The notes beneath the pieces were generated by a model, which saw only the letters and a program-made list of their open reading frames with translations, did not search any database and was not told the DNA's origin. A stretch of DNA of 64,000 nt, from NCBI GenBank assembly GCA_965213625.1, contig CBDBZU010000004.1, positions 1,696,001 through 1,760,000 of the forward strand, given 5' to 3'. Positions 15,278 to 33,581 of this stretch are shown here, one piece after another. Both the position numbers and the translations under genes were made by a program. Source of the DNA: a bacterium. Its GTDB lineage: Bacteria > UBA8248. Position 1 is the first letter of the stretch. Every line of letters begins with the position of its first letter.

Positions 15278-15548
15278 GTCTTTTCCTTCAATAGCATGAA
15301 GCTTTGCCCGATTTTCTGAGGTGCAGGGCGCATTTGCGGGGCCATGATAACCTGCAAATGAAAATTTTTTTCTTGAATTGAGAGGACCCGGGTGGAGAAA
15401 AGAAAATTCCCTTCGTTTTTCTCTGGAACTGAATATCTGGTAAAAGATTGATTTTGCAATTGCTAAACATTTTTTTCCGGCGCGAGGACCGATGCAGGGT
15501 ACGAATCATGTGGGGACGAATTTTTTGGATATCCACTTGGAATGTTTG

Positions 15549-15577
15549 TTGACAAAGACCATCATCTTCTCTATTCT
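15549..15577 (+). promoter_or_regulatory. Sigma70 promoter P1 (probable original porin promoter, overlapping attL)
   Basis: TTGACA-17 nt-TATTCT; now followed by element DNA rather than a gene. Confidence 0.7.
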
Positions 15578-16604: not shown

Positions 16605-16952
16605 ATGACAAACCGAAAACCATCCGCTGCGGCGCACTTGATCGTTCTCGCTGGCCCCGCTCTCGCGCTGCTCTACACCCTTATCGCCATAAGCGGCGGG
16701 AGGGGCGTCCGCTTCATCTCCGCGGCCTGGCTCCTCGCCGCGCTCTGGACCATCGTCACCGCGCTCTCGGGCGCCCTGTGGCGGGCGTACCGCAGCGACT
16801 GGTCCGCCTTCACCTCCTACACCCTTCCCGAGAGGAACGAAGAACAATTCGACTGGGAGACCCGGACGGGGCGTTACTCCTGGCGGCGTGATTACGAGGA
16901 AGGCGAGATGTACGATGATGATTATCCCTACGGTCACGGCCCCATCGCCTGA
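16605..16952 (+). CDS. Small two-TM hypothetical membrane protein
   Basis: GGGAGG RBS; two hydrophobic segments and an acidic tail. Confidence 0.6.
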   Translation: MTNRKPSAAAHLIVLAGPALALLYTLIAISGGRGVRFISAAWLLAALWTIVTALSGALWRAYRSDWSAFTSYTLPERNEEQFDWETRTGRYSWRRDYEEGEMYDDDYPYGHGPIA

Positions 16953-17341
16953 GCGTCCGGAGGTTTCACTCTCTGCCGCGTAAGCGGCGGCACGCGCCCC
17001 GTACCCCGGCATACCCCCCTGCTTGTTCGCCGCGGCGTCCGGTCCTCTTCACGGACGCCCATATTATCCGAAATCAATCCGCCCGGAAGGGATTTCGATA
17101 GTGGATTTCCTGCACCTTGCCGCCGTATGCGCTCACGTCCACCACCCCCCGCGCCGGGACTTGATAAAAAAATACGCTAAGACAGGCGGCATCCCTCTTT
17201 TCCTCCACAGGCGCGCCCCGCCCCGCCGAGAGACAGAGCCGGGCCGGGAGGGGGCGGCGGAAGGGGTCCGGGAGGGAGCCTCTCCCTCTCCGGTCAATAC
17301 CGGTCGCCGCCATCATCCACCCATTCCAAGGAGGCCGCGCG

Positions 17342-17644
17342 ATGCGAAAACCAAAACCTGAAGCCGACACCTTCCTCACCCATCTCCTGGGCCCTGGCCT
17401 GGCCGATGAGCGATACGAGGTCAGGCGATACAAATCCGATGCCCGGGGCAGCATCAGGCCCGCGCCCTCTCCTGAGAGCGGTAAGCGCAAAAGAAAACGC
17501 GTGACGGCCTCGCGCCGTGTTGTCAGGGAGATGCGTCCCGCCCGGGACGAGCTCATCATTTGTACGGGGATCAAAATCCCCGGGAGCGGCCTGCAGCTGT
17601 GGGGCGAACACCTCGTGTGGGGGCGGATGATGAGCCGGGGATGA
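17342..17644 (+). CDS. Hypothetical protein
   Basis: AAGGAGG RBS before ATG; 100-aa ORF. Confidence 0.45.
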   Translation: MRKPKPEADTFLTHLLGPGLADERYEVRRYKSDARGSIRPAPSPESGKRKRKRVTASRRVVREMRPARDELIICTGIKIPGSGLQLWGEHLVWGRMMSRG

Positions 17645-17710
17645 ACCCGCAAGACGTCTGGCCGCCCCACTGCCGTCTACACGACTTCACCGACACATGA
17701 GGAAAATCCT

Positions 17711-18523
17711 GTGCCACACAAGAATCCGAAAATTCGACGCGAGAGAGAACGCGAACGCCACAGGCGGAGGACCGAATCGCGTAGAGCGCGGAGAGCTTGC
17801 CCGAAGTGCGGCGAATACCCTCCTGCACCCGGGCGAACTCTCTGCGAATCCTGCCTCGGTAAATCCCTGACCGCCGAACGCGCCCGATACGCCAAAGCCC
17901 GGGAAGAGGGGTTCCCATATGGCGGGAGAGACCCCGAAAGCCGCCGCCGCATGGCGCGCGAGAGGGCGAGAAAACGCAGGCGCGAGCGTCTCGAGGCCGG
18001 GCTCTGCACGGCTTGCGGCGAACGGGAACCCGCCGGGGGCGCAGCCGTCTGCGAAATCTGCCGGGAAGCGAGACGCGCGGCGGAAAAGAAGCTTTATGAA
18101 AAAAGGAGATCCTCCGGGCGATGCGGTCGTTGCGGAGGCGCCGTTATCGGCAAGGCTTCGACGTGCGCTTCGTGCGCCGAAAGGGAGGTGAAGCGCCGCC
18201 CAAAGAAGAACGCCGCGAGCAGGAAACGCTATCGCGACAGACGCGCCCTCGGGATCTGCGTGGACTGCCAATCATCCGAAACCAACGGAGCATCAAGGTG
18301 CGCTTCCTGCGCCTTGCGCTCCTGGCACTCCTCGGGCGAGCACAGGGGGATGCCGGTCTTTCCGCCGCGCTACACCGTGGTGGAACTCGAAACGGGCGCA
18401 GAACACGGCCCCCTCGACTCCTGGGAGGAGGTAGCCATGTGCCTCGCCTTCAAGAGGCTCTCCCGCGATGAAATCGAGGTGGTCGAGGACGCGCCCTTGA
18501 TTTCCGGGCTCGCCGGGTGGTGA
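17711..18523 (+). CDS. Basic Cys-rich protein with repeated CxxC zinc-finger-like units
   Basis: Four CxxC..CxxC units separated by Arg-rich helices; GAGGA RBS. Confidence 0.7.
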   Translation: MPHKNPKIRRERERERHRRRTESRRARRACPKCGEYPPAPGRTLCESCLGKSLTAERARYAKAREEGFPYGGRDPESRRRMARERARKRRRERLEAGLCTACGEREPAGGAAVCEICREARRAAEKKLYEKRRSSGRCGRCGGAVIGKASTCASCAEREVKRRPKKNAASRKRYRDRRALGICVDCQSSETNGASRCASCALRSWHSSGEHRGMPVFPPRYTVVELETGAEHGPLDSWEEVAMCLAFKRLSRDEIEVVEDAPLISGLAGW

Positions 18524-18674
18524 GCGTCGCCTGAGCCGGCACGGCGGGGGTACGTACCGCCGGCGGGCCGACGACCGAGGGGGAGGGTTCGCCGCCTCCC
18601 TGCTCCGCAGCCGTCCCGTCGACCTCAGGGCGTCTGCCGGAAGCGGCCTCGCCGGGGGGGAGTCTCCGGTCCGC

Positions 18675-19049
18675 TCAACGCCCGCGCCATTCCCGAGGCA
18701 AAGCGAGTCCCGGGCGGCGGGGCCTTCGCTCGACCCGCCAGGCCGCCACCCATGCCGGGAGAGAGAGCAGGAGCGACTGATCGCCTGTGGGCAGCGTACC
18801 TGAGAAGCCCGCGACTGCGGCGCCGCCGAGCGCGGCCCACGCCACTAGGGCGGGACCCGGATAGCCCGAGCGGGCGAGACGCTTACAGGCGAGCGCCAGC
18901 GGCATGCCGCACGGAGCAACCGCCACCAACTCCACGAGAGAGGCGGGCGCCATCATTCCGGACACGGACCCCACGCGCAGAACCTCTTCCGCCATAATTC
19001 CTCCCGGCAGCCACGACAGCGCCGGAATCCAGAATTTGAGACTGGCCAT
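18675..19049 (-). CDS. Hypothetical membrane protein
   Basis: AGGAGGAGG RBS before MASLKFW; hydrophobic. Confidence 0.45.
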   Translation of the reverse strand: MASLKFWIPALSWLPGGIMAEEVLRVGSVSGMMAPASLVELVAVAPCGMPLALACKRLARSGYPGPALVAWAALGGAAVAGFSGTLPTGDQSLLLSLPAWVAAWRVERRPRRPGLALPREWRGR

Positions 19050-19243
19050 GCCTCCTCCTTCCTCATGTCCGCGCGCCTTCTGACACGAATCCGCGGCAAA
19101 GGCAAGCGCCCTCCGCGAGCGCTCCCCGCCGGGTGAGAACCTCCCCGGGAGAGGTGAAGAGAAGCGGGGAGCCGGGCAAATGCCCGGTAGGGAGAGGGAG
19201 ACGGTCTCCAGTTCCCGCCGCCGGCGACAACCCGAGAGGAGGC

Positions 19244-19384
19244 ATGGCCATGTAGGAGAACGACTACGACGTCGACGTTCCCACCGCGGATGAGTTGCTC
19301 GCAGAACTCGGACTCGACGCGTACACGATCCGCAAGCTGCGCGACGAAGCGCAAGGCGAGGCGGAGGAGTTTTGCAGCGTCTAG
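19244..19384 (+). pseudogene. Small acidic ORF with early amber codon
   Basis: GAGAGGAGG RBS, ATG GCC ATG TAG then open frame ENDYDVDVPTADELLAELGLD... Confidence 0.45.
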
Positions 19385-19462
19385 GACGAACCGGGGGGGC
19401 GGGTGAGAGGATTCCCGGCTCCTCGACTTTATCATCCACACCACACTTCAAGGAGTATCAAA

Positions 19463-19903
19463 ATGGCATTCGGACTGAACCGTGCGGAACTGATCGGGCG
19501 TCTCGGCGCCGACGTTACCATCAACCATCTCGCGAGCGGGGGACGCGTCGCGAATCTATCCATAGCGACCGATGAGGGCTACGTGGACAGGCAGTCCGGC
19601 GATCGGGTGGAGAAAACAGAGTGGCATAGGATCGTGACATTCCAGCCGGGCCTGGTGGACATGCTCGAGAGGCACGCGAAGAAGGGTCGCCTGGTATATG
19701 TCGCGGGCAAGCTCCAGACCCGCCGCTGGAAGAAGGATGAGGAAGACTCGGATCGGTTCTCGACCGAGATCCTCATCGCGCCCGGCGGGGTCGTCCAATT
19801 CTTGGAAAAAATGAACGGGAACAACAACGGCAACGGCGCGCACCCCGAGACGGCCGACGTGGCGCCCACCGCGGGCGTAGTCGGGCAGGAGATTCCATTC
19901 TGA
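19463..19903 (+). CDS. ssb: Single-stranded DNA-binding protein
   Basis: LNRAELIGRLGAD, TEWHRIV, KGRLVYVAGKLQTRRW, C-terminal IPF. Confidence 0.95.
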   Translation: MAFGLNRAELIGRLGADVTINHLASGGRVANLSIATDEGYVDRQSGDRVEKTEWHRIVTFQPGLVDMLERHAKKGRLVYVAGKLQTRRWKKDEEDSDRFSTEILIAPGGVVQFLEKMNGNNNGNGAHPETADVAPTAGVVGQEIPF

Positions 19904-20276
19904 TCACCCCGGGGGGTCGGCGCCACGCGCCGGCTCCCCTTCTTTTTTGCTCCGGATCCCGAGGAGGCCCGGTATGCCCCGAACACCCTCTCCCGCGTCT
20001 TTCCCTCCCTGCCGGCTTCTCTCGTCTACCGGGAACACCCCATAAATCTCCGGTTCCGTGAACGGTAAACCATGTTCCCGGAAGATCGGCTTGCACCTGC
20101 AAGCACTCCATGCTCAAGGCAGTGGCTCAGTCTACCCCCCGCTGCGGAAATTTCGGGCCGAATAACGGCCCGAAATGACCCTTTCCGCAGCATGAGAGAT
20201 TGTTTCCCGATGAGCTTCGCCTTCATCGTGAAACACCAAAAACTCTTGTGTCCCGGTGGCGGTACTAGTGTCTCTC

Positions 20277-20506
20277 TCTTAGCGCCCTCATTTTAGCACG
20301 AACGCCGGGCGAATAAAGGGTGGCCGCAAGCGGCCATCATTTACCGGTGCCCCCCAAAAACGTCGAGCGGCAAAAAACAGGAGCGCCGCTCTATGAACCG
20401 TGTTTTTCGGGAACCCCCCGGAAAATGACAAGCCCTTGATTCGCCCGCCTACGGGCATCGGCAACACCGCCCGATGCCCTTACGTGTTGAAAATGAGGCG
20501 CTAAGA
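20277..20506 (+). promoter_or_regulatory. Long imperfect hairpin, Frpo/ssi-like single-stranded promoter candidate
   Basis: Nested complementary arms over ~230 nt with TTGATT and GAAAAT on the 3' arm, just upstream of DUF4326. Confidence 0.6.
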
Positions 20507-20541
20507 AGCGCATCCGTTAACTCTCTGGAAAGGAGAAAGGC

Positions 20542-20919
20542 ATGGAAACCACCGTGGTGAACCTGAACACATATGTCGATGAACCCGGCAGCGGCCTGCT
20601 GGTGAGGATCGACCGCATGACGAAGTGGGGAAACCCCTTCCGGCTCGGCGCCGACGGCGACAGCGACGCCGTCATCGAGAAATACCGGCGATGGCTGTGG
20701 GAAAAAATCCAGCGCGAGGAGCTCGACCTATACGAACTCGCCGACCTGCAGGGCTGCGAACTCGGCTGCCACTGCCACTGCCATCCCCTCCCGTGCCACG
20801 GCGATGTCCTCGCACGCGCCGCCGAGTGCGCAGCCAGGTATCTCGACGAGATGCCCAAAGAAGTAGGGCGCAACGAGCGTGGCTACGCTCTTCCCGAATT
20901 CAACCATCCCCTCGCTTGA
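20542..20919 (+). CDS. DUF4326 domain protein
   Basis: IDRMTKWGNPF...L.GCELGC.C.P.PCHGDVL signature. Confidence 0.88.
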   Translation: METTVVNLNTYVDEPGSGLLVRIDRMTKWGNPFRLGADGDSDAVIEKYRRWLWEKIQREELDLYELADLQGCELGCHCHCHPLPCHGDVLARAAECAARYLDEMPKEVGRNERGYALPEFNHPLA

Positions 20920-21008
20920 GGACAACCGAACCACCGGCTGAAAAACCCAATCACTGAAAGGAGTGAATGATGACTGCCTCCGCGACTCACGACCGCAAGG
21001 AGAGCACC

Positions 21009-21929
21009 ATGTACGAGAACGATCACAACGATGCCCAGCATGAATCTTTCACCGCCATGGTCTGCGAGCAGGCCGCACTATTCGGCGCGACACCGGGGCC
21101 GGACGAGTTCGACAACCGCCCCGTGTGGGACGAGGGCGAGGCAACCGCCGCCGTCATCAAGGCCTTCGGCGCACTCGCGGAAGCTGCGCCCGACGGCACG
21201 CAACTCGCGGATGAGCGAAGAAACCTCCTGTGGGGGTTCGTCAACACCCTCGACGCGCAGACACAACGCCTCGAGCGCGCCGCCGACAAACTCATCCCCG
21301 GCATCCGCGAACTGCAGCGCGAGCAGGACGGCTCCGAGATCAGGTCGCGCGAACTCGAACTCATGACCGACCGCGCCCAGAACCTGAACGACAGGCGCGA
21401 TGCGTTCGAGGGGCTCAGGGACACGGCCGCAGAGGCCTACCGCATCGAGACCGGCGAGGTATGGCGGCCGAGGCGAGGATCACACGTCTCACAGACCGGC
21501 AAACTGACCTCCGCCGTGATCGAGGCGCGCGACTTCCAGCGCGCCAGAAAGGACCGCGAGAACACCGCACACTTGCCGCAGGGAACTCTCGTCGCCGTCG
21601 CGGGAGGCAAGGAGGCGAGCGATGCGGGTAAAATCATCGCACACCTCGACCGCCTTAAGGCCAAGTACGCCGATGTCGTCCTCGTCCACGGCGGCGGCCC
21701 CGGTGCGGAGAAGATAGCGGCGGGATGGGCCGAGCGGAACGGCGTCAACCAGGTCGTGTGTAAACCGGATTGGGATGCCCACGGACGGGCCGCTCCCTTC
21801 CGCAGGAACGACGAACTCCTGGCACTCCTGCCCAAGGGCGTGATCGCGTTCCCCGGCAGCGGCATCACCGACAACCTCGTCGACAAGGCAAAAACCCTCG
21901 GCATCCCCGTCCAGAAAATCGTCGCCTGA
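21009..21929 (+). CDS. DUF2493 / YspA-cpYpsA SLOG-family protein
   Basis: C-terminal VAVAGG, LVHGG, AAPFRRND, AFPGSGIT; N-terminal coiled coil; AAGGAG RBS. Confidence 0.82.
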   Translation: MYENDHNDAQHESFTAMVCEQAALFGATPGPDEFDNRPVWDEGEATAAVIKAFGALAEAAPDGTQLADERRNLLWGFVNTLDAQTQRLERAADKLIPGIRELQREQDGSEIRSRELELMTDRAQNLNDRRDAFEGLRDTAAEAYRIETGEVWRPRRGSHVSQTGKLTSAVIEARDFQRARKDRENTAHLPQGTLVAVAGGKEASDAGKIIAHLDRLKAKYADVVLVHGGGPGAEKIAAGWAERNGVNQVVCKPDWDAHGRAAPFRRNDELLALLPKGVIAFPGSGITDNLVDKAKTLGIPVQKIVA

Positions 21930-22598
21930 TGCGGGAGCTCAACGGGTCGCGTCGCCCGGCGGCGCGGCCCGTTCTTCTCCTCCTTCATTTGCCGCTGTAC
22001 TTGCCTCCCCGTATTACTCTCCTCCTCTCCTCTCGCTCAGTCGCCGCGGCGGCTCCCGTTCGCCATCTTCTCCGGCGTCGATTCCCCTGTCGCTTGTCCC
22101 ACGGATTCGACCATCTGACGCCCTTCGGCGCTTCGGGTTACACACCGGAACGCAGCAGGCTGCGAAGTTCCGGCATACGACGACCGGGCTACTCTCCCGT
22201 CTCATGTCGGCGACACAGGGCGCCAGGCGCATTGCGGATCGAGCGTATGCTCAGAGCATACACAATCTTTCTCATCCCTGACGGCGCATGGCTGCGCAAG
22301 TCGCGCATGGATACCGGATCCGTCGCAATCGGTGGCGTTCCGTAATACAATGTGTTACGGCCCGCATTACGTTAGTATGCTTCCGATTCTGGCCGTTTCG
22401 CGGTGCGCCGGGGCCGCCACCTGTGCGGAGCGCTCTCTCGCAGATGGCCGCAAGCCCCTGAATACGGGACGTTGAATCGAGCGTAGACGGTCCCGGATAC
22501 GCCCTGATTTTCGCCCCGAACCAAGCCGTCGGAACCCGGAAAGGGCGAGCGATGCGGTCCGTATCGCCACCCGATCTTGTCCTGAGGAAGAGAAAAAG

Positions 22599-22985
22599 AT
22601 GACGCGAAACGACCCGAATCAGCCCGAAAAGAGCAAAAAATCAGCGGAAAAACCGGGCGAACCGAGAGCGCCGCACTCGGTTCGCTTCACCGGTTCGGAA
22701 TGGAAATTGATTAAACGAGCCGCCGAACTGCACGGTATTGCGGCCGGTGAACTCGTCCGCAACGGCGCGATGGCCGCTGTCGAGGAGCTGCTCGACGAGC
22801 CTCCAGAGGCCACCCTGTCGCATGGTCATGCCGCCCTCATCGAGTCCGTCTACCGCATGGTCTACGTGATGGCGACCCTGGATCGGGGACGATTGATCGA
22901 CGCCGGGCGCGGGAAAGAGCTCGAGGACCTCATCGCCGCGGCGCACAGAACGATGGCCGAGACCATGGACGAAGGCACAGGGTGA
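22599..22985 (+). CDS. Ribbon-helix-helix-like DNA-binding protein
   Basis: HSVRFTGSEWKLIKRAAELHGI..GELVR pattern resembles RHH/MobC-type regulators. Confidence 0.55.
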   Translation: MTRNDPNQPEKSKKSAEKPGEPRAPHSVRFTGSEWKLIKRAAELHGIAAGELVRNGAMAAVEELLDEPPEATLSHGHAALIESVYRMVYVMATLDRGRLIDAGRGKELEDLIAAAHRTMAETMDEGTG

Positions 22986-23298
22986 ATGCAGAGGGCGGCG
23001 CGATGCGTGCGTAAGCCGGTTTATCGGTTGCAAATTTGTTGCAAGAACCCGCGAATCGGGCCCGGTCGGACCGCGTTCAGAGCCCCAGGTCCATCTCGAT
23101 CCGCTTCCCGGGGCCGGGTTCGGGTGTCTTCGCGTGCGGCGTTTCCCGTCCGTTTTTCATGCCCGGGGAAGAGGAATCGGAGAGTCCATTCGGGTAAAGT
23201 CCAGATTGCACGGCAACCTTTCGGCCAAAGACACTTGAACACGGAACATTCCGAAGCCCGCTTCAAGAATGTCTCCAACTTGTGTTGCCGGCTTCTGT

Positions 23299-23318
23299 GT
23301 ATTATATTTATATATAAC
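23299..23318 (+). promoter_or_regulatory. Probable pemIK operator palindrome
   Basis: AT-rich dyad TTATAT-TTAT-ATATAA immediately before the antitoxin RBS. Confidence 0.55.
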
Positions 23319-23330
23319 TTGGAGGATTTC

Positions 23331-23588
23331 ATGCACACGACAAATCTGCGCAAAGTCGGTGGTTCCATCATGCTAGCCGTTCCACCTGCCCTTCTTGACC
23401 TCCTGAAACTCGGGGTCGGCGCGAAGGTGGAAATAGACGTGGAGGACGGTCGCCTGATCGTCGAGCCCAAAGCACGTCCCGTCTATTCACTCGATGAGCT
23501 TCTCGCGCAATGCGTAGAGACCTCTACGCAGCCCGCCGAGGACCGCGCCTGGATTGAGGCCAGACCAGTTGGCAAAGAGTTGTTGTAG
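23331..23588 (+). CDS. pemI: PemI/MazE-family antitoxin
   Basis: MHTTNLRKVGGSIMLAVPP AbrB fold; YSLDELLAQC; ends GKELL. Confidence 0.9.
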   Translation: MHTTNLRKVGGSIMLAVPPALLDLLKLGVGAKVEIDVEDGRLIVEPKARPVYSLDELLAQCVETSTQPAEDRAWIEARPVGKELL

Positions 23589-23920
23589 TGAAGCGGGGTG
23601 AAATCTGGCTCGTCAGCCTCGACCCCACCGCAGGCCATGAACAACAGGGTACCCGTCCGGTACTGATCGTATCCCCAGACCCGTTCAATAGACTCACCGG
23701 GACGCCCGTGGTCTTGCCGATCACATCGGGCGGCGACTTTGCGCGCAGGGCAGGTTTCGCAGTTTCTCTCTCGGGCGCGGGTACCCGAACAACCGGTGTC
23801 GTCCGTTGCGACCAGCCGAGGTCCCTTGATCTCGCTGCCCGCAACTGGGCGCGTCTCGAAACCGTTCCTGAACTTATTATGGACGAAGTGCTTGCCCGAA
23901 TCGCCACCATCCTCGAATAA
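23588..23920 (+). CDS. pemK: PemK/MazF-family endoribonuclease toxin
   Basis: RGEIWLVSLDPTAGHEQQGTRPVLIVS, PITSGG, CDQPR. Confidence 0.92.
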   Translation: MKRGEIWLVSLDPTAGHEQQGTRPVLIVSPDPFNRLTGTPVVLPITSGGDFARRAGFAVSLSGAGTRTTGVVRCDQPRSLDLAARNWARLETVPELIMDEVLARIATILE

Positions 23921-24354
23921 AAAGTGATTGTTCGTCTTCAAGGCCGGACGGCACTTATCAGTGATTTCCCGTTTCGGGTCCCAGTTCTTGCGAATAACGC
24001 TAATTTGCCAATGCAATAGAGGGAGCGGCACCGATTGGCTTAATCGGTCCTGGTTCAGGGAGAGGTGAGGAGCGAAATTTCGTGCCTTGGAGCGTCAGGT
24101 GGGAAGATCGGTAAACGTAATGAATGTGATCGTACGTCAGCTTCATTTTTTTCTCCTGTTGGGTATGGATGAAAAAATTGGGGAATTGTAACCCAAAGTT
24201 GACAAGATTTTTAGGATAAATATCTACCCCGCTATTGGACTATTTCTACAGAGCGCCTGGCCTTTTTGTACTCGACATTCAAACGATGTACCGTCTTAAT
24301 CAACTCGGAAGACTTGCCGAAAACTACGAACATCAACTTATTTTTCCAATGGAT

Positions 24355-24729
24355 TGCAGTTGAAAAACTTCCATGAGGAAGCCTTTTTTGATCCGTTCGA
24401 TGCACCACCATGATAAGAGCTTCAAATTCTTCGGCGGGTAGATTCTGGATTTCATCAATCAAGATGATGATCGAAGATTTGCGCGCCTTCGCTGCCTCGC
24501 CCGCGGCGACAAACACCTCGGCAAAATCACGGGCTAGCGTGCCGCTGTCGGCAACTCCTGGTTCACCATCTATGTCTAAGAAAAATTCAATATCCTCAAC
24601 CTTGATCTTGACCGCACCAACAAAACTCTTTAGAACGCGCAAACTCCTTTTTACATGTTCACTAACCCCCTTGATTCGATCAAGCTTCAGCAAGATCGAG
24701 CGCAAAGTGGCAATAATCGTTTTCGACAA
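24355..24729 (-). pseudogene. Internal fragment of an AAA+ ATPase
   Basis: Walker B IILIDEIQ but no Walker A or start; runs into an IS-end-like TTTTTCAAC motif. Confidence 0.6.
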
Positions 24730-25218
24730 AATTCGTTCGTGCTGATTTCGATAAAGTCTGTGAGTGCGTATTCTTTAGATTTTGTTTGGAGGTGTAGCTA
24801 TTGAACTCAAGAGGAATTGAGAAGGGCTATAAGTCTTAGTGAATCAGAATCAATGCCTACTTGGTTGCCGGTTTCAGATACAGCATAACGTGCTCACCGC
24901 TCAATACAAGATATTGATTTCACTTCGTCATGTGTATAATCACGGATAAAATCGCGGAGTCTACTGGTGATGGGGTTCAATACGAGCGTCGGCGCCTTCG
25001 TATACTTGATCGAATACCATCACCTGAAAGCCGGAGTTTCTATTGATTTATTGGTCAGGCTCGGAAGTGAAGCGGTGAAATTGAAGTTCCTGGTGCACAC
25101 AGCTATCGATGCTCGAGGACGTTAAATGTATGACCCGAGTCGTCCAATACGGCGTGTTAATTCGCAAGTCGTCTGGTGGTACTAGAGAAACACGAGCAAC
25201 TGACGAGGAGGTGACTTC

Positions 25219-25518
25219 ATGAACCCCAAAATAACCATACCGAAACCCGCGCTTTCCGCCTTCTGTCGGGAGAACGGTATCCGCCGGCTTTCCGTCTTCG
25301 GCTCGGCCTTGGGTGAGGATTTTGGACCCGGGAGCGATATAGACCTTCTCGTCGAATTCGAGCCGGAAGCTAGAATCGGCTTCATGAAACTGGCCAGGAT
25401 GCAAAGGGAGTTGGCGGCCATCATTCACCGCAAGGTGGATCTGGTTCCCCAAGATGGATTGAAGCCGAAAATACGAACGGAGGCGCTTTCGGGCGCGGAA
25501 GTGATCTATGCGGCGTGA
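25219..25518 (+). CDS. MntA-type minimal nucleotidyltransferase antitoxin
   Basis: VFGS.....F..GSDIDLLVEF, RKVDLV; GGAGGTGA RBS. Confidence 0.9.
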   Translation: MNPKITIPKPALSAFCRENGIRRLSVFGSALGEDFGPGSDIDLLVEFEPEARIGFMKLARMQRELAAIIHRKVDLVPQDGLKPKIRTEALSGAEVIYAA

Positions 25519-25864
25519 GGAACTCTACCTCGCCGACATGCTGGAGGCTGCGGACGCCATCGGCCGATTCCTTCTGGAAACCGAGCAACATTCGTTCATC
25601 GCGGACGACCTGCTGCGTAGCGCCGTCCTGCATAAATTGGCGGTCATCGGCGAAGGAGCAACCCGGTTGTCCGATGCGTTTCAGGCGCGCCATCCCCAAA
25701 TCGAATGGGGAGACATCGTGGCGTTTCGCAACATCATCGTTCACGCCTACTTTTCTGTGGATTGGCCTATCGTCTGGGTGACGGCGACACAGGACGTTCC
25801 GGAACTTCGGCGCGGAATCGCCCGGATACTTGCGGAAGAATACCCCGACTGGGAAGCACGGTAA
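25508..25864 (+). CDS. HepT-like HEPN (DUF86) ribonuclease toxin
   Basis: IGE, FRNIIVHAY (RX4HXY); overlaps the MNT gene. Confidence 0.9.
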   Translation: MRREELYLADMLEAADAIGRFLLETEQHSFIADDLLRSAVLHKLAVIGEGATRLSDAFQARHPQIEWGDIVAFRNIIVHAYFSVDWPIVWVTATQDVPELRRGIARILAEEYPDWEAR

Positions 25865-26196
25865 CCTTCCTCGAGCCGCGCAGAAACAATAAACGGCATG
25901 GAACCAGATGGGCGCGAAGGGGAGAACAATCTAGTCAGGCGGATATGTCGTCCCGCCCCTGAACTCTCAAACGCCCTTGTCCGCAGGTGTGGTGACTCCG
26001 ATTTCTCCGCGCAGGAGGCGCCTGAAGGTGGCCCGTCGCCACCCGTTCCTGCACCGGGCGATCCTGCGTCCGACGCGGTTCCGCCTGCCGGCGGGCATCG
26101 AAGCCGAGCGCCCGTCGATCCAAGAGGTATATTCCGCTTGGCGCTGCTCGATGAGCGAAACCCGGCCGTCCCGTTGATGCGGCGTTTCGAGGAGAA

Positions 26197-27035
26197 TTGA
26201 CACGCGAACAGCGCGCTGCCACAGATTCCCTGTTCGCGCACGAGACCGGCGTAAGTGCCGCCGCGTCCGGGTTCGGCAAGACGGTCGTCGCAGCATTGAT
26301 GATAGCTGAGCGCGGCGTGAAGACGCTCATCCTCGTTCATCGCCGCCAGCTGATGATGCAGTGGATTGCGCGGCTTGGTGTTTTTCTCGATCTTACTACT
26401 TCCGCCATCGGACGGGCCGGGGGCAGGAAACGCAAGCTTAGCGGGGTCATAGACGTCGCCACGCTCCAGAGTCTGGAGCGCAAAAACGTGGTGGACGACC
26501 TCGTCGCCGACTACAGGCACCTCGTGGTCGACGAGTGCCACCACTTATCTGCGGTGAGCTTCGAGGTGGTGGCGCGCCGCGCCAGGGCGAGGTACGTGCT
26601 CGGGTTGTCTGCGACCATCATGCGCAAGGAGCACGCCGGGGAACTCGCCGGGAAGATCGGGCGCTTCGCGCGAAACGTCCTGCTCTTCAGAGGCGGCATG
26701 GAAGAGAGAGCGCCGCGAGATCATGCAGCGCCTGGAAGACATACCCGACGGCGAGGAGCGGGTACTGGTCGTGACCGGCCGCTATATCGGAGAGAGATTC
26801 GACGATGTCCGCCTCGACATGCTGTTCCTCGCGATGCCCGTGTCGTGGCGGGGAACGCTGGCCCAGCACTTCGGCCGCCTGCACCGGCTCCATTCAAAAA
26901 AACGCGAAGGTGCTAGTCTACGAATATATCGACGACGCGGTGCCGGCGCTCAGGCGTTATGGGCGGCAGTCGCGTCAAGGGCTACGAGAGCCTCGGCTAC
27001 ACAGTCGAGTGGCCCGGCGTCCCAAGCGGAACGTG
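26197..27035 (+). pseudogene. SF2 DEAD/DEAH (ResIII-like) helicase remnant
   Basis: GFGKT, DECHH, LSAT in one frame; TGRYIGE.FD..LD.LFL and GRLHR in a second; VYEYID in a third; internal deletion after LSAT. Confidence 0.8.
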
Positions 27036-27449
27036 AACTTACAGGCCCGGGCGAGTATGGCGCTGACGTTATTACGGTCGCGTGATCCGGACAAGGTGAA
27101 GATATAGGCCTGCCTGACGGCGGCAGGCGATCTCAAACGGTTCAGTGCCGCTCATTTTTCTAGGTTATGTACCCCTTGGAGGGCTCTTGCATCAACTGGA
27201 ATCGCCGTACGAATATCCATGAAGCTTACAAACCCCACGGTCTCGATCTACCTGAACCCAAGTAATACAAACCGTTCCGAACCCAATTCCTCACCTTATT
27301 TCATAAAGCAGGTGGTTTATGTACGTGGGGCAGTCCTTGGGAGGAGCTGCCACCTGCGAATCAATCATTCTCTTTGGGCCTACTCCCCCACCCCTGCATA
27401 AATATATCCTTGTCCTGAGGCGAGGAATGCTTCAAAGAACTCCACACAC

Positions 27450-27478
27450 AAAAAACCGGGGGGCCGAAGCCCCCCGGT
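27450..27478 (-). terminator. Rho-independent terminator of the element porin
   Basis: ACCGGGGGGC-TTCG-GCCCCCCGGT plus T-run; same hairpin as at 33355. Confidence 0.88.
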
Positions 27479-27519
27479 CGTCATCGCGTCAGGTAAGGAC
27501 TCGAGCGTCCTTCATGCTG

Positions 27520-28746
27520 CTAGAATGAATGCCTCAACCGCCAGCTGACCACCCACCCGTCATCGGGCTCAGTCGCGTTGGCCGCTCTGCCGTAGTCGCC
27601 GCGCAGGATGACGGCGCCAACAGCGCGAAGCTCGGTACGCGGATGTATTTTCCACTTGAAGCCGGCGTTGAGCTCGGTGCCGAATTCCTTGGAAGTATCC
27701 ATATTATCTCCGGGATGACTTTCTGCGGAGTTGTAAACGGATACGCCACCACCCAGCGAAAATGTTTTGCTGATCTTGTACTCGCCTATTCCCTCGAGCA
27801 CAACCGCGCCGTTCAAATTTTTCAAAGTAACGTCTTTCAGATCGTTATTGATACTATCCCAGCGGCGCGAACTCATGATGTGAGAACCGTGGAGCCAACC
27901 GGAACCATTGTTTTGAGGGAAATGGAATTTACCCGTTTCGCCGTCTTTGCCTTCGTCATCGCCGGAGAGCATCGTGAGGTTGCCCTCGAGTTTCAGCTTG
28001 CCCAGGCTTGCGGAAGTCCTCACCAAGACGGCCCATCCCGAAAGATCCGTCCCTCCATCGAGCTCACCATCCTGGCCGACGACCGAGGCGTTCAAGTTGA
28101 AGATGCCTACCTTGCCCTTGGCGTGGAGACCGAAGAAGCTGTAGTCATAACCGTTATTCGCTCCGTTTCTGGAATTGGCCAGCCAAGGAGAGAGCGTGAG
28201 AGTGGGCGACACTTTGACGCCCACGCTGGCATAGTAATCCTCTTTATCGGCGTTGGCTTCGCTCTTGTCTTCACTAGCCTTGACATAAAACATGCTGAGC
28301 GACATGTTCTTGCTGAGCTTGCCATAGACCCCGACGCCCGGCTCGCGAGTCCGTCCGCCGCTGTCGTAGATTTCCTTATCTGGCGAGAAGCGATCCCAAC
28401 GGCCCCAACGCATGCGGAGCGTGCTGCCCGGGATCGCGAAGTCGATCGCCCAGCGGTTCACACCTAGGGTCTGACGACTGGCATTGGTGAAACCGCCGTG
28501 CGGGCTTTGAAATTCGGGCTCCCACACGGTTGTGACTGCGCCGCTCTTCACCGTGAATCGCGGGCGGATGAGCGCTTCGAGGTAATTATCCTTGTCGTCT
28601 GCGTCATCGTCCCCGTCTTTGTTGGCGTTATTGCTGGTGCCGCGCACCTGATAGAGACCGGTCATCTTGAAGTCGGCCGCATACGAGGGCAAGGTGAATG
28701 ACAAGACGAGCGCCATCGCAAATAGAGCTAACAGAATTTTCCTCAT
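27520..28746 (-). CDS. Outer-membrane beta-barrel porin, element-borne allele
   Basis: Signal peptide ending SYA, amphipathic beta strands, C-terminal W.LRHSF; colinear homolog of 32084-33313. Confidence 0.82.
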   Translation of the reverse strand: MRKILLALFAMALVLSFTLPSYAADFKMTGLYQVRGTSNNANKDGDDDADDKDNYLEALIRPRFTVKSGAVTTVWEPEFQSPHGGFTNASRQTLGVNRWAIDFAIPGSTLRMRWGRWDRFSPDKEIYDSGGRTREPGVGVYGKLSKNMSLSMFYVKASEDKSEANADKEDYYASVGVKVSPTLTLSPWLANSRNGANNGYDYSFFGLHAKGKVGIFNLNASVVGQDGELDGGTDLSGWAVLVRTSASLGKLKLEGNLTMLSGDDEGKDGETGKFHFPQNNGSGWLHGSHIMSSRRWDSINNDLKDVTLKNLNGAVVLEGIGEYKISKTFSLGGGVSVYNSAESHPGDNMDTSKEFGTELNAGFKWKIHPRTELRAVGAVILRGDYGRAANATEPDDGWVVSWRLRHSF

Positions 28747-29001
28747 GTGTATTTCTCCTCATCGAGGTTTCAAAAAAATGTTGCCGCCTTCCTTCGTTTT
28801 AATGTCCTGATTGTTCGATGCTTCTGAATCTGTGCTTCGTCGCCTGAAACAGGGCTTCCCGCTCTCACATCACCCCCTCTCTTCAATACTGCCCCGTACG
28901 TCGACAAGGTTCTATCGAGCGATCTGATAATTGCCGCTTATGTAGACACTATCCCATTAGTAAAAATAGTCATTCCATTCTTCATTTCTCAAAAGAATAG
29001 A
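28720..29001 (-). repeat. 282-bp inverted repeat, copy 1 (core site, -10 box, leader, first porin codons)
   Basis: Reverse complement of 31829-32110 with no mismatch seen by eye. Confidence 0.93.
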
Positions 29002-29278
29002 AAAGATATGATTTAAAAGCTAAAACGCCGACAATCATGCGCATGGATGCGCTCATGCATGATAAATACATGTTTTTAATTTATTTATAATTACACTTTC
29101 TTCCGCGTTGCCTCTTGCGCCATCGCCAGATTTGTGCTGGAATGCGCTCTCAGTTGATGCGGGACGTATGCGTTATGATGACGTATTTTGACGGGAGCGC
29201 CGCACCGGAGCATGCGGATGGGCGTTCCCGCAGACCGCCGCAGGCATGCGGTTTGATGACACACCGGAGGGAGGAACC

Positions 29279-30463
29279 ATGCCGAGGAGAAGCGAATTCA
29301 GGCTCACCAAGCGCGCCGTCGACGCGCTCGAAACCGAACGCCGCGACGCCCTGTTCTGGGACCGGGATCTGGCCGGATTCGGGGTGCGCGTCCACGCCAC
29401 GGGACGGAAGGTTTTTGTCGCGCAATCGAGAGGCCCCAGGGGGATAAAACGCGTGACCCTGGGCCGTGACGGGGAGATGTCGTGCGAGGAGGCGAGGAGG
29501 CAGGCCGCCATCGTCATCGACCGCATTAAAAGCGGCGAGGACCCCGTCCCGAAGCCGCCTGAGGCGGAACCCACCCTGGGGGAGATCGCCGAACGCTTCA
29601 TGAGCACATACGTGGAGAGGCGCCTCAAGCCGGGCAGCGTCGTGGAGTACCGCACCATGCTGGACAAATACATCCTGCCAGCCCTGGGCGGGATGGCGCT
29701 GTCCGAGGTCAGGCGGGCGCAAATCTCCGCGTTTCATCACGGCATGCGCGGCATGCCGAGCCGGGCGAACACGTCGCTCCACGTCCTCTCCCGGATGCTC
29801 AGCCTGGCCGAGGCGTGGGACCTCATCCCGCCCGGACGGAACCCGTGCAGGGGAGTGCCGCTCTACAAGACGCGCTCGCGCGAGCGGTTCCTGACGACGG
29901 AGGAATACCGCCGCCTGGGCCGGACGTTAAAAGAAGCCGAGGCGGACGGCTCGATCTGGTCGCCCGCGATCAAGGCGATCCGGCTGCTCATGCTGACCGG
30001 ATGCCGGAGGAACGAGATACTGAACCTTAAGTGGGACGATGTGGACCGCACGGCGGGCGTTCTGAGGCTCAGGGACGCCAAGGCGGGCCCCCGCATGGTT
30101 CCCCTGACGAATCCCGTGCTGAGGGTTCTCGAGACGCTCCCCCGGAAGCGGGGCGAGCCATGGGTGATCCCCGGGCAGAACCCGGGCCAGAACCTGCGGA
30201 GCCTTCACTACTACTGGCGGCGCATACGGGAGCGGGCGGGTCTCTCCGACGTGCGGATCCATGACCTGCGCCATTCGTTCGCTTCGCGTGCGCTTGCGCT
30301 GGGCGAGAGCCTCTACACGATCGGCAAGCTTCTGGGACACGCGACGGTGCCGACGACGGCGCGCTACACGCACCTGATGCTCCGGGCCGAGAAGGATGCG
30401 GCCTCCCGTGTGGGGGGAAGCATCGGCGTTCACCTGACGAACGAGAAGGAGGAACTTGAATGA
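29279..30463 (+). CDS. Tyrosine recombinase/integrase 1 with arm-binding domain
   Basis: WD..LAGFGVRV N-terminus; TGCRRNE, DAKAG, HDLRH, LLGH, TTARY catalytic set intact. Confidence 0.95.
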   Translation: MPRRSEFRLTKRAVDALETERRDALFWDRDLAGFGVRVHATGRKVFVAQSRGPRGIKRVTLGRDGEMSCEEARRQAAIVIDRIKSGEDPVPKPPEAEPTLGEIAERFMSTYVERRLKPGSVVEYRTMLDKYILPALGGMALSEVRRAQISAFHHGMRGMPSRANTSLHVLSRMLSLAEAWDLIPPGRNPCRGVPLYKTRSRERFLTTEEYRRLGRTLKEAEADGSIWSPAIKAIRLLMLTGCRRNEILNLKWDDVDRTAGVLRLRDAKAGPRMVPLTNPVLRVLETLPRKRGEPWVIPGQNPGQNLRSLHYYWRRIRERAGLSDVRIHDLRHSFASRALALGESLYTIGKLLGHATVPTTARYTHLMLRAEKDAASRVGGSIGVHLTNEKEELE

Positions 30464-31629
30464 AGAAGCCGGGCACGATGGTGCTGTCGAGCCGGATGGT
30501 GGAGAAGTTTGCCGTGGAAAAAGACACGGTGTACTGGGATAGTTACGTCACCGGCTTCGGCGTCAGGGTGTATCCGAGCGGGAGCAAGGTCTACATCGCC
30601 CAGGCGCGGGGGCCCGGGGGGCCGAAGCGCGTGACGATAGGCCGCCACGGGGTGATCAACGCGGATGAGGCGAGAAGGCGCGCGGCGCTCGTCATCAATC
30701 GCATCAAGTCGGGCGAGGAGGGGGTTCCAAAACAGACGAAGCCCGTGCCCGGTCCCACGGTGGCCGAAGCCGCCGCGCGGTATCTCGCCGAATACGTGGA
30801 GGTGCGCTGTAAGCCGCACACCGCCGCCATGACCCGGTCGCTACTCGGAAGACGCATCTTGCCCGCCCTGGGCGGGACGCCGCTCGCGGTGGTGGAGCGC
30901 GCGCAGGTGGCGGAACTGCACCAGAGCATGCACGAGACGCCCCCGACGGCGAACAGGACAGTCGGCATCCTCTCCGCGCTATACCGGTATGCCGAGAGGT
31001 GGGGCCTCATTCCCGAGGGAGCGCCGAACCCCTGCCGCGCCGTCGTCAAATTCCCCAAGCGACAGGGGGAGCGTTTTTTGACGGATGAAGAGTTCATCCG
31101 CCTGGGACGCACACTCGATGAGGTGGAGAAAAGCAAGCCGAAGTACGCGAACGCGGTGGCGGCGATCAGACTTCTGGCCCTGACGGGGTGCCGGAAGTCG
31201 GAAATCCTCACCCTGCGCTGGGAGAACGTGGCGCTGGAAGAGGGGGAATTGAGACTGCCCGATTCCAAGACGGGCGCCCGCGTGATATCGCTCCCGCCGC
31301 AGGCGGTCGCTCTCCTGGCCGCCCTGCCCCGGGAGGAAGGGAATCCCTGGGTGATTCGCGGCAGGAAGCCGGGCGTTCGCCTGATGAATATCTATGGCGT
31401 TTGGCACTACGTCCGAGCGCGGGCGGGTCTCGATGACGTGCGCCTCCACGACCTCCGCCACTCGTTCGCGTCCAGAGCGCTCGCGCTGGGCGAGAGCCTT
31501 CCGATGATCGGCAGGCTCCTGGGGCACAGCCGCATTGAGACCACGGCGCGCTACGCGCACCTAGCGCGCGATACCGCGTACGAAGCGGCCGAGCGGGTTG
31601 CGGCGAGCATCGAGAAAGACATACTATGA
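30460..31629 (+). CDS. Tyrosine recombinase/integrase 2 with arm-binding domain
   Basis: TGCRKSE, DSKTG, HDLRH, LLGH, TTARY; ATGA overlap with integrase 1. Confidence 0.95.
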   Translation: MKKPGTMVLSSRMVEKFAVEKDTVYWDSYVTGFGVRVYPSGSKVYIAQARGPGGPKRVTIGRHGVINADEARRRAALVINRIKSGEEGVPKQTKPVPGPTVAEAAARYLAEYVEVRCKPHTAAMTRSLLGRRILPALGGTPLAVVERAQVAELHQSMHETPPTANRTVGILSALYRYAERWGLIPEGAPNPCRAVVKFPKRQGERFLTDEEFIRLGRTLDEVEKSKPKYANAVAAIRLLALTGCRKSEILTLRWENVALEEGELRLPDSKTGARVISLPPQAVALLAALPREEGNPWVIRGRKPGVRLMNIYGVWHYVRARAGLDDVRLHDLRHSFASRALALGESLPMIGRLLGHSRIETTARYAHLARDTAYEAAERVAASIEKDIL

Positions 31630-31806
31630 GAGGCAATCGACGGGGTGGACGAAAAGAACCGGACTGGCCGGGTTCGTGTGCTCGTTTTTTTGAAATTTTC
31701 AGATTCGGGGTTTGACGAATCAGTCTATCTTCGCTAATACTATGTCTATGTGGAATAGGGTGACTGATTCCGAAAGATTTCTTTTCGGATTCAGGTGGGA
31801 AGTTTG

Positions 31807-31836
31807 TTGACAAAATATAAATTTTCGATCTATTCT
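31807..31836 (+). promoter_or_regulatory. Hybrid sigma70 promoter P2 driving the resident porin (overlaps attR)
   Basis: TTGACA-18 nt-TATTCT; GTTTGTTGACAAA shared with P1. Confidence 0.72.
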
Positions 31837-32110
31837 TTTGAGAAATGAAGAATGGAATGACTATTTTTACTAATGGGATAGTGTCTACATAAGCGGCAAT
31901 TATCAGATCGCTCGATAGAACCTTGTCGACGTACGGGGCAGTATTGAAGAGAGGGGGTGATGTGAGAGCGGGAAGCCCTGTTTCAGGCGACGAAGCACAG
32001 ATTCAGAAGCATCGAACAATCAGGACATTAAAACGAAGGAAGGCGGCAACATTTTTTTGAAACCTCGATGAGGAGAAATACACATGAGGAAAATTCTGTT
32101 AGCTCTATTT
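31829..32110 (+). repeat. 282-bp inverted repeat, copy 2
   Basis: Matches reverse complement of 28720-29001. Confidence 0.93.
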
Positions 32111-33313
32111 ACGATGGCGCTCGTCTTGTCGTTCACCTTGCCCTCGTATGCAGCCGACTTGAAATTCAGCGGCTTCTTCCGGGTACGTGGTTCCAGTGAA
32201 AACGTCAACAAAGACGGTGACGATGACAGGGATGACAAAGCAAACTACCTGGACGCGCTCATCCGCCCGCGCTTCACGGCGAAAAGCGGCGCAGTCACGG
32301 CCGTGTGGGAGCCCGAGTTCGTAAGCGCGAACGGTGGCTTCGCCATCGGCCCCGGCCGGCAGACCGTCGGCGTCAACCGCTGGGTGATCGACTTCGCCGT
32401 TCCGGGCAGCGCGCTCCGCATCCGCATGGGCCGGACGGACTACTTCTCGCCGGACAAGGAAATCTATGACAGCGGCGGTCGTCATCGTGAGCCTGGCATT
32501 GCACTTTACGGCAAGCTCAGCAAGAACATGTCGCTCAGCGCGTTTATGACCAAGGCGAACGAAGACGCTGGCCCAGATAACAACGATAAGACGGATTACT
32601 ACATCGGCGTGGGTGTCAAGGTGACCCCCAATCTCACGCTCTCGCCGTGGGCGGCCAACTCCAGGGACGCTGCGGAAGGCGGTTATGACTACAGCTTCCT
32701 CGGTATCAACGCCAAGACCAAGGTGGGCATCCTGAACGTGAACGGTTCTGTCGTCATCCAGGAAGGTGACCTCTCGAGCGGTGATGAGCTCTCGGGTTGG
32801 GCCGTTCTGCTGAGGACTTCCACGACTCTCGGCAAGCTGAAGCTCAGCGGCAACCTCACGATGCTCTCCGGCAACGACGGCACCAAAGCTGGCGAAGACG
32901 GACGCTTCAGGACGCCTCAGGAAGGCGGTTCCGGCTGGTTTGTCGGCGGCCACATCATGACTTCGCGCCGCTGGACGACTCTTAACAACGGTATCAGAAG
33001 CGTGCACCTGGGCGCCTTGAACGGCGCGACTGTGCTCGAGGGGCTGGCCGATTTCAAAGTCAGCAAGACCTTGACGCTGGGCGGCGGCGTATCCCTTTAC
33101 AATTCCGCCGAACCTTCCCTCGCAGCGAACACGATGGACGCGAAGGAATTCGGCACCGAGCTCAACGCCGGCTTCAAGTGGAAGATCCACTCGAACCTCG
33201 AGCTTCGCGGTGTGGGCGCCGTTATTCTGCGCGGCGATTACGGCAGAGAGATCGGCGGTTCCGAGACGGATGACGGCTGGGCGGTCGGCTGGACGCTGCG
33301 CCACATCTTCTAG
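32084..33313 (+). CDS. Outer-membrane beta-barrel porin, resident allele
   Basis: Signal peptide, beta-strand periodicity, C-terminal W.LRHIF; GAGGAG RBS, strong terminator. Confidence 0.82.
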   Translation: MRKILLALFTMALVLSFTLPSYAADLKFSGFFRVRGSSENVNKDGDDDRDDKANYLDALIRPRFTAKSGAVTAVWEPEFVSANGGFAIGPGRQTVGVNRWVIDFAVPGSALRIRMGRTDYFSPDKEIYDSGGRHREPGIALYGKLSKNMSLSAFMTKANEDAGPDNNDKTDYYIGVGVKVTPNLTLSPWAANSRDAAEGGYDYSFLGINAKTKVGILNVNGSVVIQEGDLSSGDELSGWAVLLRTSTTLGKLKLSGNLTMLSGNDGTKAGEDGRFRTPQEGGSGWFVGGHIMTSRRWTTLNNGIRSVHLGALNGATVLEGLADFKVSKTLTLGGGVSLYNSAEPSLAANTMDAKEFGTELNAGFKWKIHSNLELRGVGAVILRGDYGREIGGSETDDGWAVGWTLRHIF

Positions 33314-33354
33314 CAATATGACGGACCTTCGCGTTCTCACTTGACGCGACGACG

Positions 33355-33385
33355 ACCGGGGGGCTTCGGCCCCCCGGTTTTTTTT
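33355..33385 (+). terminator. Rho-independent terminator
   Basis: ACCGGGGGGC-TTCG-GCCCCCCGGT-TTTTTTT. Confidence 0.9.
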
Positions 33386-33581
33386 GTATGGAAATATTTG
33401 CGACGGCATTACGCTGCAGGGACAGGCCTACGTGCCTGTCTTGATGAAGGCCTTCTTGCCGATGAAAGCGAAGGACAACCACTGAATGTTGTCCCTAAAG
33501 GACCGGACCAGGAATCACGAAGGGCAGGACAGCCCGAAAGGGTTATCCCTACGCCTGCCTTCTGGCGCTGGTTGCATATTT

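Follow-up and report, generated by a model that had tools for sequence, protein, structure and literature searches.

In the 64,000-nucleotide window analysed here (the whole stretch of DNA, from the genome that we call G000), two opposed porin genes flank a pair of integrase genes, and integrase-mediated inversion at short core sites probably passes the -35 box of a split promoter between the two, porin A and porin B. In the model that we propose from the sequence, one of three copies of the core, site 2, would be the left recombination site of an invertible promoter cassette (29002-31828). In the orientation as assembled, the full promoter (TTGACA, 18 nt, TATTCT) would read into porin B, and exchange by the integrases within the inverted cores would turn the cassette around, so that porin A received the -35 box instead. 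The -10 half would stay in the core, in front of each opposed porin gene, with only the -35 half moving, and the same cassette would also be what integrates a 16.2-kb island, which has this core as its insertion point. The model supposes that the integrases catalyse the exchange, that this takes place at appreciable frequency within the population and that expression follows the -35 box. It builds on features observed directly, namely the anatomy of the locus, the insertion relative to related genomes, the occurrence of both orientations among species, the conservation of the module, the foreign porin A and a conversion tract. The core sites and the repeat arms that carry them are these:

15570-15580, forward strand: site 1, core TCTATTCTTTT, where the island has its attL-like left junction
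28991-29001, reverse strand: site 2, inverted core with a cassette-side flank lacking a -35 box
31829-31839, forward strand: site 3, core, where the island has its attR-like right junction and the putative invertible cassette its right end
27433-29001, reverse strand: left arm, with a terminator (27454-27479), the porin A gene (27520-28746, 408 aa), a 244-nt leader and the core
31829-33400, forward strand: right arm, with a 255-nt leader, the porin B gene (32084-33313, 409 aa) and a terminator (33354-33379)

An earlier note on the window had placed sites at 15570(+), 29001(-) and 31829(+); the strings that it quoted are present, and all three sites are real. The 11-nt core TCTATTCTTTT has three exact copies in the window (15570-15580(+), 28991-29001(-) and 31829-31839(+)), and when up to one mismatch was allowed the count became four (the three exact copies and one unrelated one-mismatch site) against 0.42 expected, a count reached in 0 of 100 shuffles. 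The 10-mer CTATTCTTTT occurs in the window solely at 15571(+), 31830(+) and 28991(-), and three of its 10 occurrences across the 4.13-Mb genome fall at the porin/integrase locus. A chance likeness of a short AT-rich motif, which the brevity of the core (just 11 nt), its AT-rich composition and the AT-rich intergenic DNA around it would favour, has virtually no probability and is in effect already refuted, given three exact copies against the 0.42 expected even with one mismatch and the location of all three cores at structural breakpoints.

On the minus strand (28980-29015), site 2 reads ...ATCATATCTTTTC-TATTCTTTT-GAGAAATG..., which had been likened to the empty site reconstructed from the outer flanks of the island. 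The likeness holds for the core. The GAGAAATG side, however, goes well beyond a short resemblance, since a 1.57-kb inverted repeat starts there. The flank ATCATATCTTTTC agrees with the left flank of site 1, ATCATCTTCTC, for about 13 nt, but not beyond (by our reading about 4 of 17 positions further upstream agree, and TTGACA is absent). The reconstructed empty site itself corresponds to real ones, GATCATCTTTTC-TATTCTTT-GGGAAATGG in the relative G018 and AATCATCTTTTC-TATTCTTT-GAGATATGG in G017. The earlier note had missed that sites 2 and 3 end the 1.57-kb repeat, that the core is the predicted -10 box of the porin promoter and that modules free of site 1 exist elsewhere.

Sites 2 and 3 are the inner ends of the inverted repeat that the two opposed porin genes form (27433-29001 against 31829-33400, 1.57 kb, about 80% identical); its segments are 517 nt at 91%, then 545 nt at 76%, then 258 nt at 80%, and its first 282 nt are 100% identical. 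Porins A and B share 69% amino acid identity, and porin B is 81-91% identical to six serC-side porins of relatives. As judged from the predicted structure and sequence features, the proteins fit the definition of a porin: they have a signal peptide, a modelled beta-barrel fold and a C-terminal aromatic residue (both terminate in F). The structure model, derived from a 35-sequence alignment, has 18 strands (pLDDT 83, pTM 0.79), and Foldseek matched it to AlgE, C. jejuni MOMP and OprD/Occ, all 18-stranded channels (TM 0.55-0.67). The NCBIfam model NF033939 ('outer membrane homotrimeric porin') matches the N-terminal half at 1e-13, under the model's cut-off. The family has 146 members at E <= 1e-5, and the few that carry a source name are Nitrospinae hypothetical proteins. 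Differences between A and B are somewhat commoner outside the predicted strands (39%) than in them (28%). The porin leader (244-255 nt; 28747-28990 and 31840-32083) is conserved genus-wide, for example in the block TCGCTCGATAGAA, and may be a regulatory 5' UTR; Rfam, searched with 27300-33500, returned no family for it and one weak sub-threshold match, on the terminator.

Two promoter-like sequences at the cores bear on how the porin genes might be transcribed:

15549-15577, forward strand: P1, the predicted native porin promoter at the island's left junction (TTGACA, 17 nt, TATTCT; 10/12 in the promoter scan)
31807-31836, forward strand: P3, a predicted promoter (TTGACA, 18 nt, TATTCT) with its -35 box (31807-31812) in the cassette and its -10 box (31831-31836) in the core

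The core is predicted to hold the -10 box (TATTCT) of a genus-wide porin promoter, so that recombination there would split the promoter. TTGACA-spacer-TATTCTTT precedes the porin leader at seven of the eight uninterrupted sites that were fetched from relatives (G002, G004, G008, G014, G017, G018 and G022), the exception being G010, which is without TATTCTTT. P3 is the best promoter-like match in 27300-33500 (10/12 by consensus), and it is 72% similar to the upstream region of P1. At site 2, the same scan of 27300-33500 found no promoter-like match spanning the core, and the cassette-side flank is without a -35 box. As assembled, porin B appears to have a complete promoter and porin A appears to be without one. 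A weaker promoter-like match (TTGAGA, 18 nt, TATTTT; 9/12) lies inside both arms, and porin A may therefore not be fully silent. This internal match could be a promoter that works in either orientation, but by our reading of the sites it is not conserved in G011. The orphaned P1, predicted to be strong, may transcribe into the island: no terminator-like site follows it within 15200-16300, and the first 1.4 kb of the island (15581-17012) has no clear coding signal, its substitutions relative to G020 showing no clear third-position bias.

The DNA between sites 1 and 3 is a 16.2-kb island, at the place of which relatives have an uninterrupted site. Its cargo is

15581-27432, no strand assigned: genes for SSB, DUF4326, YAcAr/SLOG, RelB/NikA-like and MazE/MazF proteins, a nucleotidyltransferase, a helicase fragment and several unknown ORFs

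The left flank of the island consists of an FG-GAP protein gene (13358-15277) and intergenic DNA, and porin B, then serC-like and serA-like genes, make up the right flank. These two flanks are adjacent in G002, G017 and G022, where their matches share about 37 nt, at the promoter and core; homology of site 1 to the uninterrupted-site relatives stops at the core (query 3-980), and G020 has the same junction. The order FG-GAP, P1, core, porin, serC recurs in the fetched loci L035 to L040, and L041, a stretch too short to reach serC, has FG-GAP, P1 and porin. The cargo is absent between FG-GAP and porin in the fetched uninterrupted-site relatives, is colinear with that of G020 at 84-87%, and yielded no phage structural genes in Pfam, NCBIfam or PHROGs. 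Joining the island ends reconstructs an attP, ...TTCGAT-C-TATTCTTTT-ATCGAA..., with inverted half-sites TTCGAT/ATCGAA, and joining the outer flanks reconstructs an attB, ...TTCTC-TATTCTTTT-GAGAA..., with inverted half-sites TTCTC/GAGAA; inverted half-sites around a core are the usual layout of a tyrosine-recombinase site. The locus thus combines tyrosine recombinase motifs, a direct core repeat at 15570 and 31829 (both (+)) and uninterrupted relatives, as an integrative island does. The excision between sites 1 and 3 that had been put forward earlier gains comparative backing from G002, G017 and G022, in which flank and porin are adjacent and overlap at the core. Having integrated at this same core, the island left the native P1 at site 1, hence the three sites.

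Within the cargo, the SSB/DUF4326/YAcAr part (18938-22107) reaches a summed contig depth of about 400-2100 in all four sequencing runs of the sample, where the flanks have about 100; it shows many variant letters and seems to be a module common to many elements or organisms in that sample. The MazE-like/MazF genes (22986-23920) and the nucleotidyltransferase with a small downstream ORF (25219-25781) are possible toxin-antitoxin pairs; they lie in a portion of the island that is not shared with G020, around a stretch of 44% GC (24001-25000).

The putative cassette between the repeat arms encodes two integrases:

29002-31828, forward strand: predicted invertible cassette, 2827 nt of unique sequence comprising the left end (L2), int1, int2, terminator-like hairpins and the -35 box
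29246-30463, forward strand: int1, a tyrosine integrase with an arm-binding N-terminal domain (PF13356, PF14659 and PF00589)
30460-31629, forward strand: int2, a paralogue of int1, 51% identical to it and overlapping it by 4 nt

Pfam gives both integrases arm-binding, SAM-like and catalytic domains (PF00589 at E 7.6e-24 and 4.1e-21). Aligned to each other and to XerD (1a0p), which is the best solved match of Int1 (E 1.1e-12), both keep the R, HxxR, H and Y motifs. The NCBIfam Xer models scored them at 64-66 bits, against cut-offs of 330-335. A search for arm-type integrase repeats, as 8-mers shared by the flanks of the three sites, found none beyond the promoter block. The pair resembles XerC/XerD in consisting of two paralogous tyrosine recombinases, and two enzymes on two unlike half-sites would be a possible analogy, although Xer proteins have no arm-binding domain; that Int1 and Int2 act as a heteromer on unlike half-sites is speculation.

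Contig C4 of G000 carries seven further tandem int1-int2 pairs (at about 5.7k, 190k, 334k, 488k, 955k, 1975k and 4072k; 61-74% amino acid identity to the window pair), all of which share a conserved AT-rich stretch before int1. Those at 5.7k and 190k match the window integrases with equal lengths and identities and have near-identical flanks, and in those at 334k, 488k and 955k one integrase is fragmented or truncated. No flanking inverted repeats were found within 6 kb of the seven pairs, no TTGACA lies within 450 nt downstream of their int2 genes, and no core was seen in 330 nt there, so the promoter-carrying layout is special to the porin locus. The seven pairs without an inverted repeat also suggest that this integrase family usually just integrates. 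They therefore speak for a different account, in which the locus is a passive relic: an island that brought a foreign porin with its upstream region, the repeat being a by-product and the orientation having changed once, as a rare occurrence. We regard this account as unlikely, for reasons that come from the relatives.

The closest relative is G020, which has integrases 95-96% identical to those in the window, the same left junction (P1, core, ATCGAACAG...), colinear cargo and a colinear serC flank. The stretch 27441-32548 of the window aligns to G020 in reverse, with both outer flanks colinear. In G000 the L2 flank upstream of int1 (...TTTTAAATCATATC...) lies next to porin A and the TTGACA flank next to porin B; in G020 the L2 flank lies next to the serC-side porin and the TTGACA flank next to the distal porin. 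This reversal of the integrase/promoter segment provides comparative backing for inversion between sites 2 and 3, which the earlier note had listed among its outcomes. Nothing backs the 13.4-kb inversion between sites 1 and 2 that it expected to put the element porin under P1, which is possible in geometry only. Against a switch stands the count of orientations, the -35 end pointing toward the serC-side porin in six of the seven modules of readable orientation and the other way in G020. The G011-type orientation could be the ancestral, never-inverted state, and the difference between G000 and G020 could be a single evolutionary event, a rare accident; an alternative orientation in just one of seven modules is likewise what a passive relic would leave. 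The G020 island is about 35 kb long and has, beside its distal porin, a second, more divergent full-length FG-GAP copy (79%, against 88-92% for the native one; L030-L032, about 31060-33353 in oriented coordinates). The arrangement is that of a G011-type left half within an island and suggests the capture of flanking host genes.

Based on a genus set of 23 genomes (G000, the source of the window, and 22 others), we found two opposed porins with int1-int2 between them in nine (G000, G011, G012, G013, G016, G020, G014, G005 and G021), in three structural contexts. The repeat starts exactly at the core (TCTATTCTTT) in all seven complete modules (G000, G011, G012, G013, G014, G016 and G020), and the fragmented genomes G005 and G021 have the same junctions of flank, core and leader. 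Island cargo is missing from the modules of G011, G012, G013 and G016, in which the native intergenic region with P1 forms the cassette's right end; the insertion in these G011-type modules lies about 300 nt upstream of the core, not at the core. Since the two-site module is present without site 1 elsewhere, the porin toggle would be the primary unit, to which the third site was added in the G000/G020 lineage. Distal porins are intact ORFs in all eight cases. A passive relic accounts poorly for this distribution, that is, for a module in nine of 23 genomes and three contexts with the repeat always ending at the core, and for distal porins that are all intact; the absence of cargo from the G011-type modules further argues that the unit of opposed porins and integrases is kept for its own sake.

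A tree of 22 porins from the loci fetched by then, with N-terminal over-calls trimmed and no rows dropped, placed porin A as sister to the native porin of G008 (100/100) and porin B among native porins; porin A is thus a foreign allele. The tree thereby supports what had been offered earlier as an alternative to a recombination network, a porin captured from a previous host, and does not exclude the network. A foreign porin is also part of what a passive relic would contain. The distal porins are scattered on the tree (six changes, no better than shuffled labels) and do not form one clade, so the porin at the cassette's left end has been swapped repeatedly, with the junction staying at the core.

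Next to the core, the porin A gene carries a tract of a different affinity:

28720-29001, reverse strand: gene-conversion tract, 282 nt, 100% identical to 31829-32110, starting at the core and running 27 nt into the CDS

This tract is 100% identical to porin B, 91% to the G020 porin B leader and 80% to G008, whereas the rest of porin A is 74% identical to porin B and 82% to the native G008 porin. The porin A leader has been converted to the resident type from the core onward. Such a start at the core is compatible with intermediates of recombination forming between sites 2 and 3 in the G000 lineage. A core-start tract is also found in G014 (99% over 300 nt) and is absent from G011, G012, G016 and G020.

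The same observations raise the question of homologous recombination, namely a programmed, RecA-dependent inversion between the conserved porin 5' regions, with the integrases serving for integration only. The perfect identity over 282 nt in G000, the 99% over 300 nt in G014 and the conversion mosaicism are hallmarks of homologous exchange, and the perfect 282-nt repeat in G000 would permit RecA-dependent inversion. We nevertheless consider such a mechanism quite improbable. The arms start exactly at the integrase core in seven of seven modules, and intact integrases are retained inside modules that have no cargo. Moreover, in G011 and G012 (68%) and in G020 (46%) the arms are least alike in the 100 nt beside the core, yet the flanks join at the core; with arms just 46% identical over these 100 nt, the G020 junctions are unlike the product of a homologous exchange. 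We therefore retain inversion by the integrases at the cores as the preferred reading.

Four sequencing runs from one sample, which contain 0.97 of the words, were analysed as contigs over 14500-33500; none of the runs listed was from RNA. One contig bridges site 1, and contigs end 30 nt inside the repeat, at 28972 and 31858. Among the joints listed for the contigs of these four runs, which drop rare variants, there is none at any of the three cores, and neither the excision joint 15580>31840 nor an assembled variant with sites 1 and 2 recombined is present. The lack of junction variants among these joints agrees with a passive relic; given the 282 nt of identity between the arms, an inversion that joins sites 2 and 3 yields no new 31-mer, and the contig joints are silent on it. 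Exact patterns for the cassette left end and for P1 with the core gave 0 matches in metagenome contigs.

Programmed inversions are well studied in gut and pathogenic bacteria, and E. coli fimS with FimB/FimE and the promoters of Bacteroides surface structures are invertible promoter switches. In invertons, promoter segments bounded by inverted repeats, together with tyrosine recombinase genes, control surface structures (PMC9881135). The porin locus resembles them in that its segment is bounded by inverted repeats (the arms and the inverted cores) and contains site-specific recombinase genes (int1 and int2), with a predicted surface protein as the target; by consensus match, its promoter-like sequence has the -35 box inside the segment and the -10 box in the repeat core. 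The locus differs in that the promoter would be split, with only the -35 box moving and the -10 box being the crossover core that stays with each gene. It would also toggle between two alleles in place of ON and OFF, has two tandem integrases with an arm-binding domain inside the segment, and has repeats that reach into 1.6 kb of gene sequence.

Another comparable system is Campylobacter fetus sapA, which reportedly has one promoter, located on an invertible segment that is flanked by opposed homologues of an S-layer gene; inversion at sap reportedly depends on RecA and has no known dedicated recombinase. Both loci have one promoter, an invertible or putatively invertible segment and opposed paralogous surface-protein genes with conserved 5' regions, but the porin locus has two integrase genes within the segment and a repeat whose end is the att core of these integrases. 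In the Mycoplasma vsa, vsp and vpma systems and in the inversion loci of Bacteroides SusC/SusD-type outer membrane proteins beside integrases, a site-specific tyrosine recombinase lies beside surface-protein gene families with one expression site. These systems swap coding segments or move genes to a fixed promoter and are not in an integrating island; the present locus, by contrast, belongs to the phylum Nitrospinota and involves an 18-strand porin-like barrel. In the shufflon of R64 type, the 3' coding ends of a single gene are rearranged by way of several inverted sites, and we rejected it as a model for the porin locus, where the sites lie upstream of complete genes, one inverted pair surrounds the recombinase genes and no coding segments are swapped.

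Islands with PF13356 arm-binding tyrosine integrases are ones that we take to be P4-like. The present island is like them in integrase domain architecture, 11-nt direct end repeats and uninterrupted sites in relatives. It is unlike them in that its target is a predicted promoter -10 box and not a tRNA gene, it has two tandem integrases, and it brings in a -35 box as a replacement, together with a porin allele at an additional, inverted attB-like site. Programmed inversions have been found enriched for TonB-linked outer membrane proteins and for neighbours annotated 'site-specific integrase' (PMC9881135). Our full-text searches returned general inverton papers but no combination of Nitrospinota with phase variation or programmed inversion and none for such porins; look-ups in PMC11602134 and PMC9881135 met neither Nitrospin* nor porin, and searches of the literature with tandem-integrase wording returned Xer papers.

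Beyond inversion itself, we tentatively entertain a wider reading, which is possible though doubtful: that the locus is a mobile porin toggle, in which the island splits the promoter of the host's major porin at its -10 box and brings a surrogate -35 box, on an invertible integrase cassette, and a foreign porin, placed behind an inverted copy of the site, one integrase pair serves for integration, excision and phase-variable hand-over of the promoter between the host and island porins, and the module spreads and swaps porin alleles within a Nitrospinota genus. With the -10 box as the crossover site, the promoter would be assembled by recombination, and the same sites would serve both mobility and gene switching, by means of a conserved tandem integrase pair whose other copies in this genome only accompany islands. 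An uncultured lineage would, if the switch is active, gain a heritable and reversible change of its most exposed outer-membrane channel, and the locus would illustrate how a new host can acquire phase variation from a mobile element in one step. A possible use of such a toggle would be to vary a major surface antigen or phage receptor.

Three relatives show further arrangements of the same genes. In G014 (L033/L052/L034), the arms are 20.8 kb apart and 79% identical over 1570 nt, with 99% over the first 300 nt; they enclose int1 and int2, 3.6 kb of additional DNA, a further 11 kb with other genes, and the FG-GAP gene with P1, and inversion there would flip 20.8 kb. G013 has, in addition to its complete serC-side module and 1.6 Mb from it, an FG-GAP gene with an opposed porin, a core and a flank like the cassette left end, without integrases (L027, L028), which may reflect a large rearrangement or be an orphan silent porin site. 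In G019, direct tandem porin duplicates occur at two places, giving four copies (L061; C1:2441-2445k), with no integrase match in L061; these duplicates are a different route to porin multiplicity.
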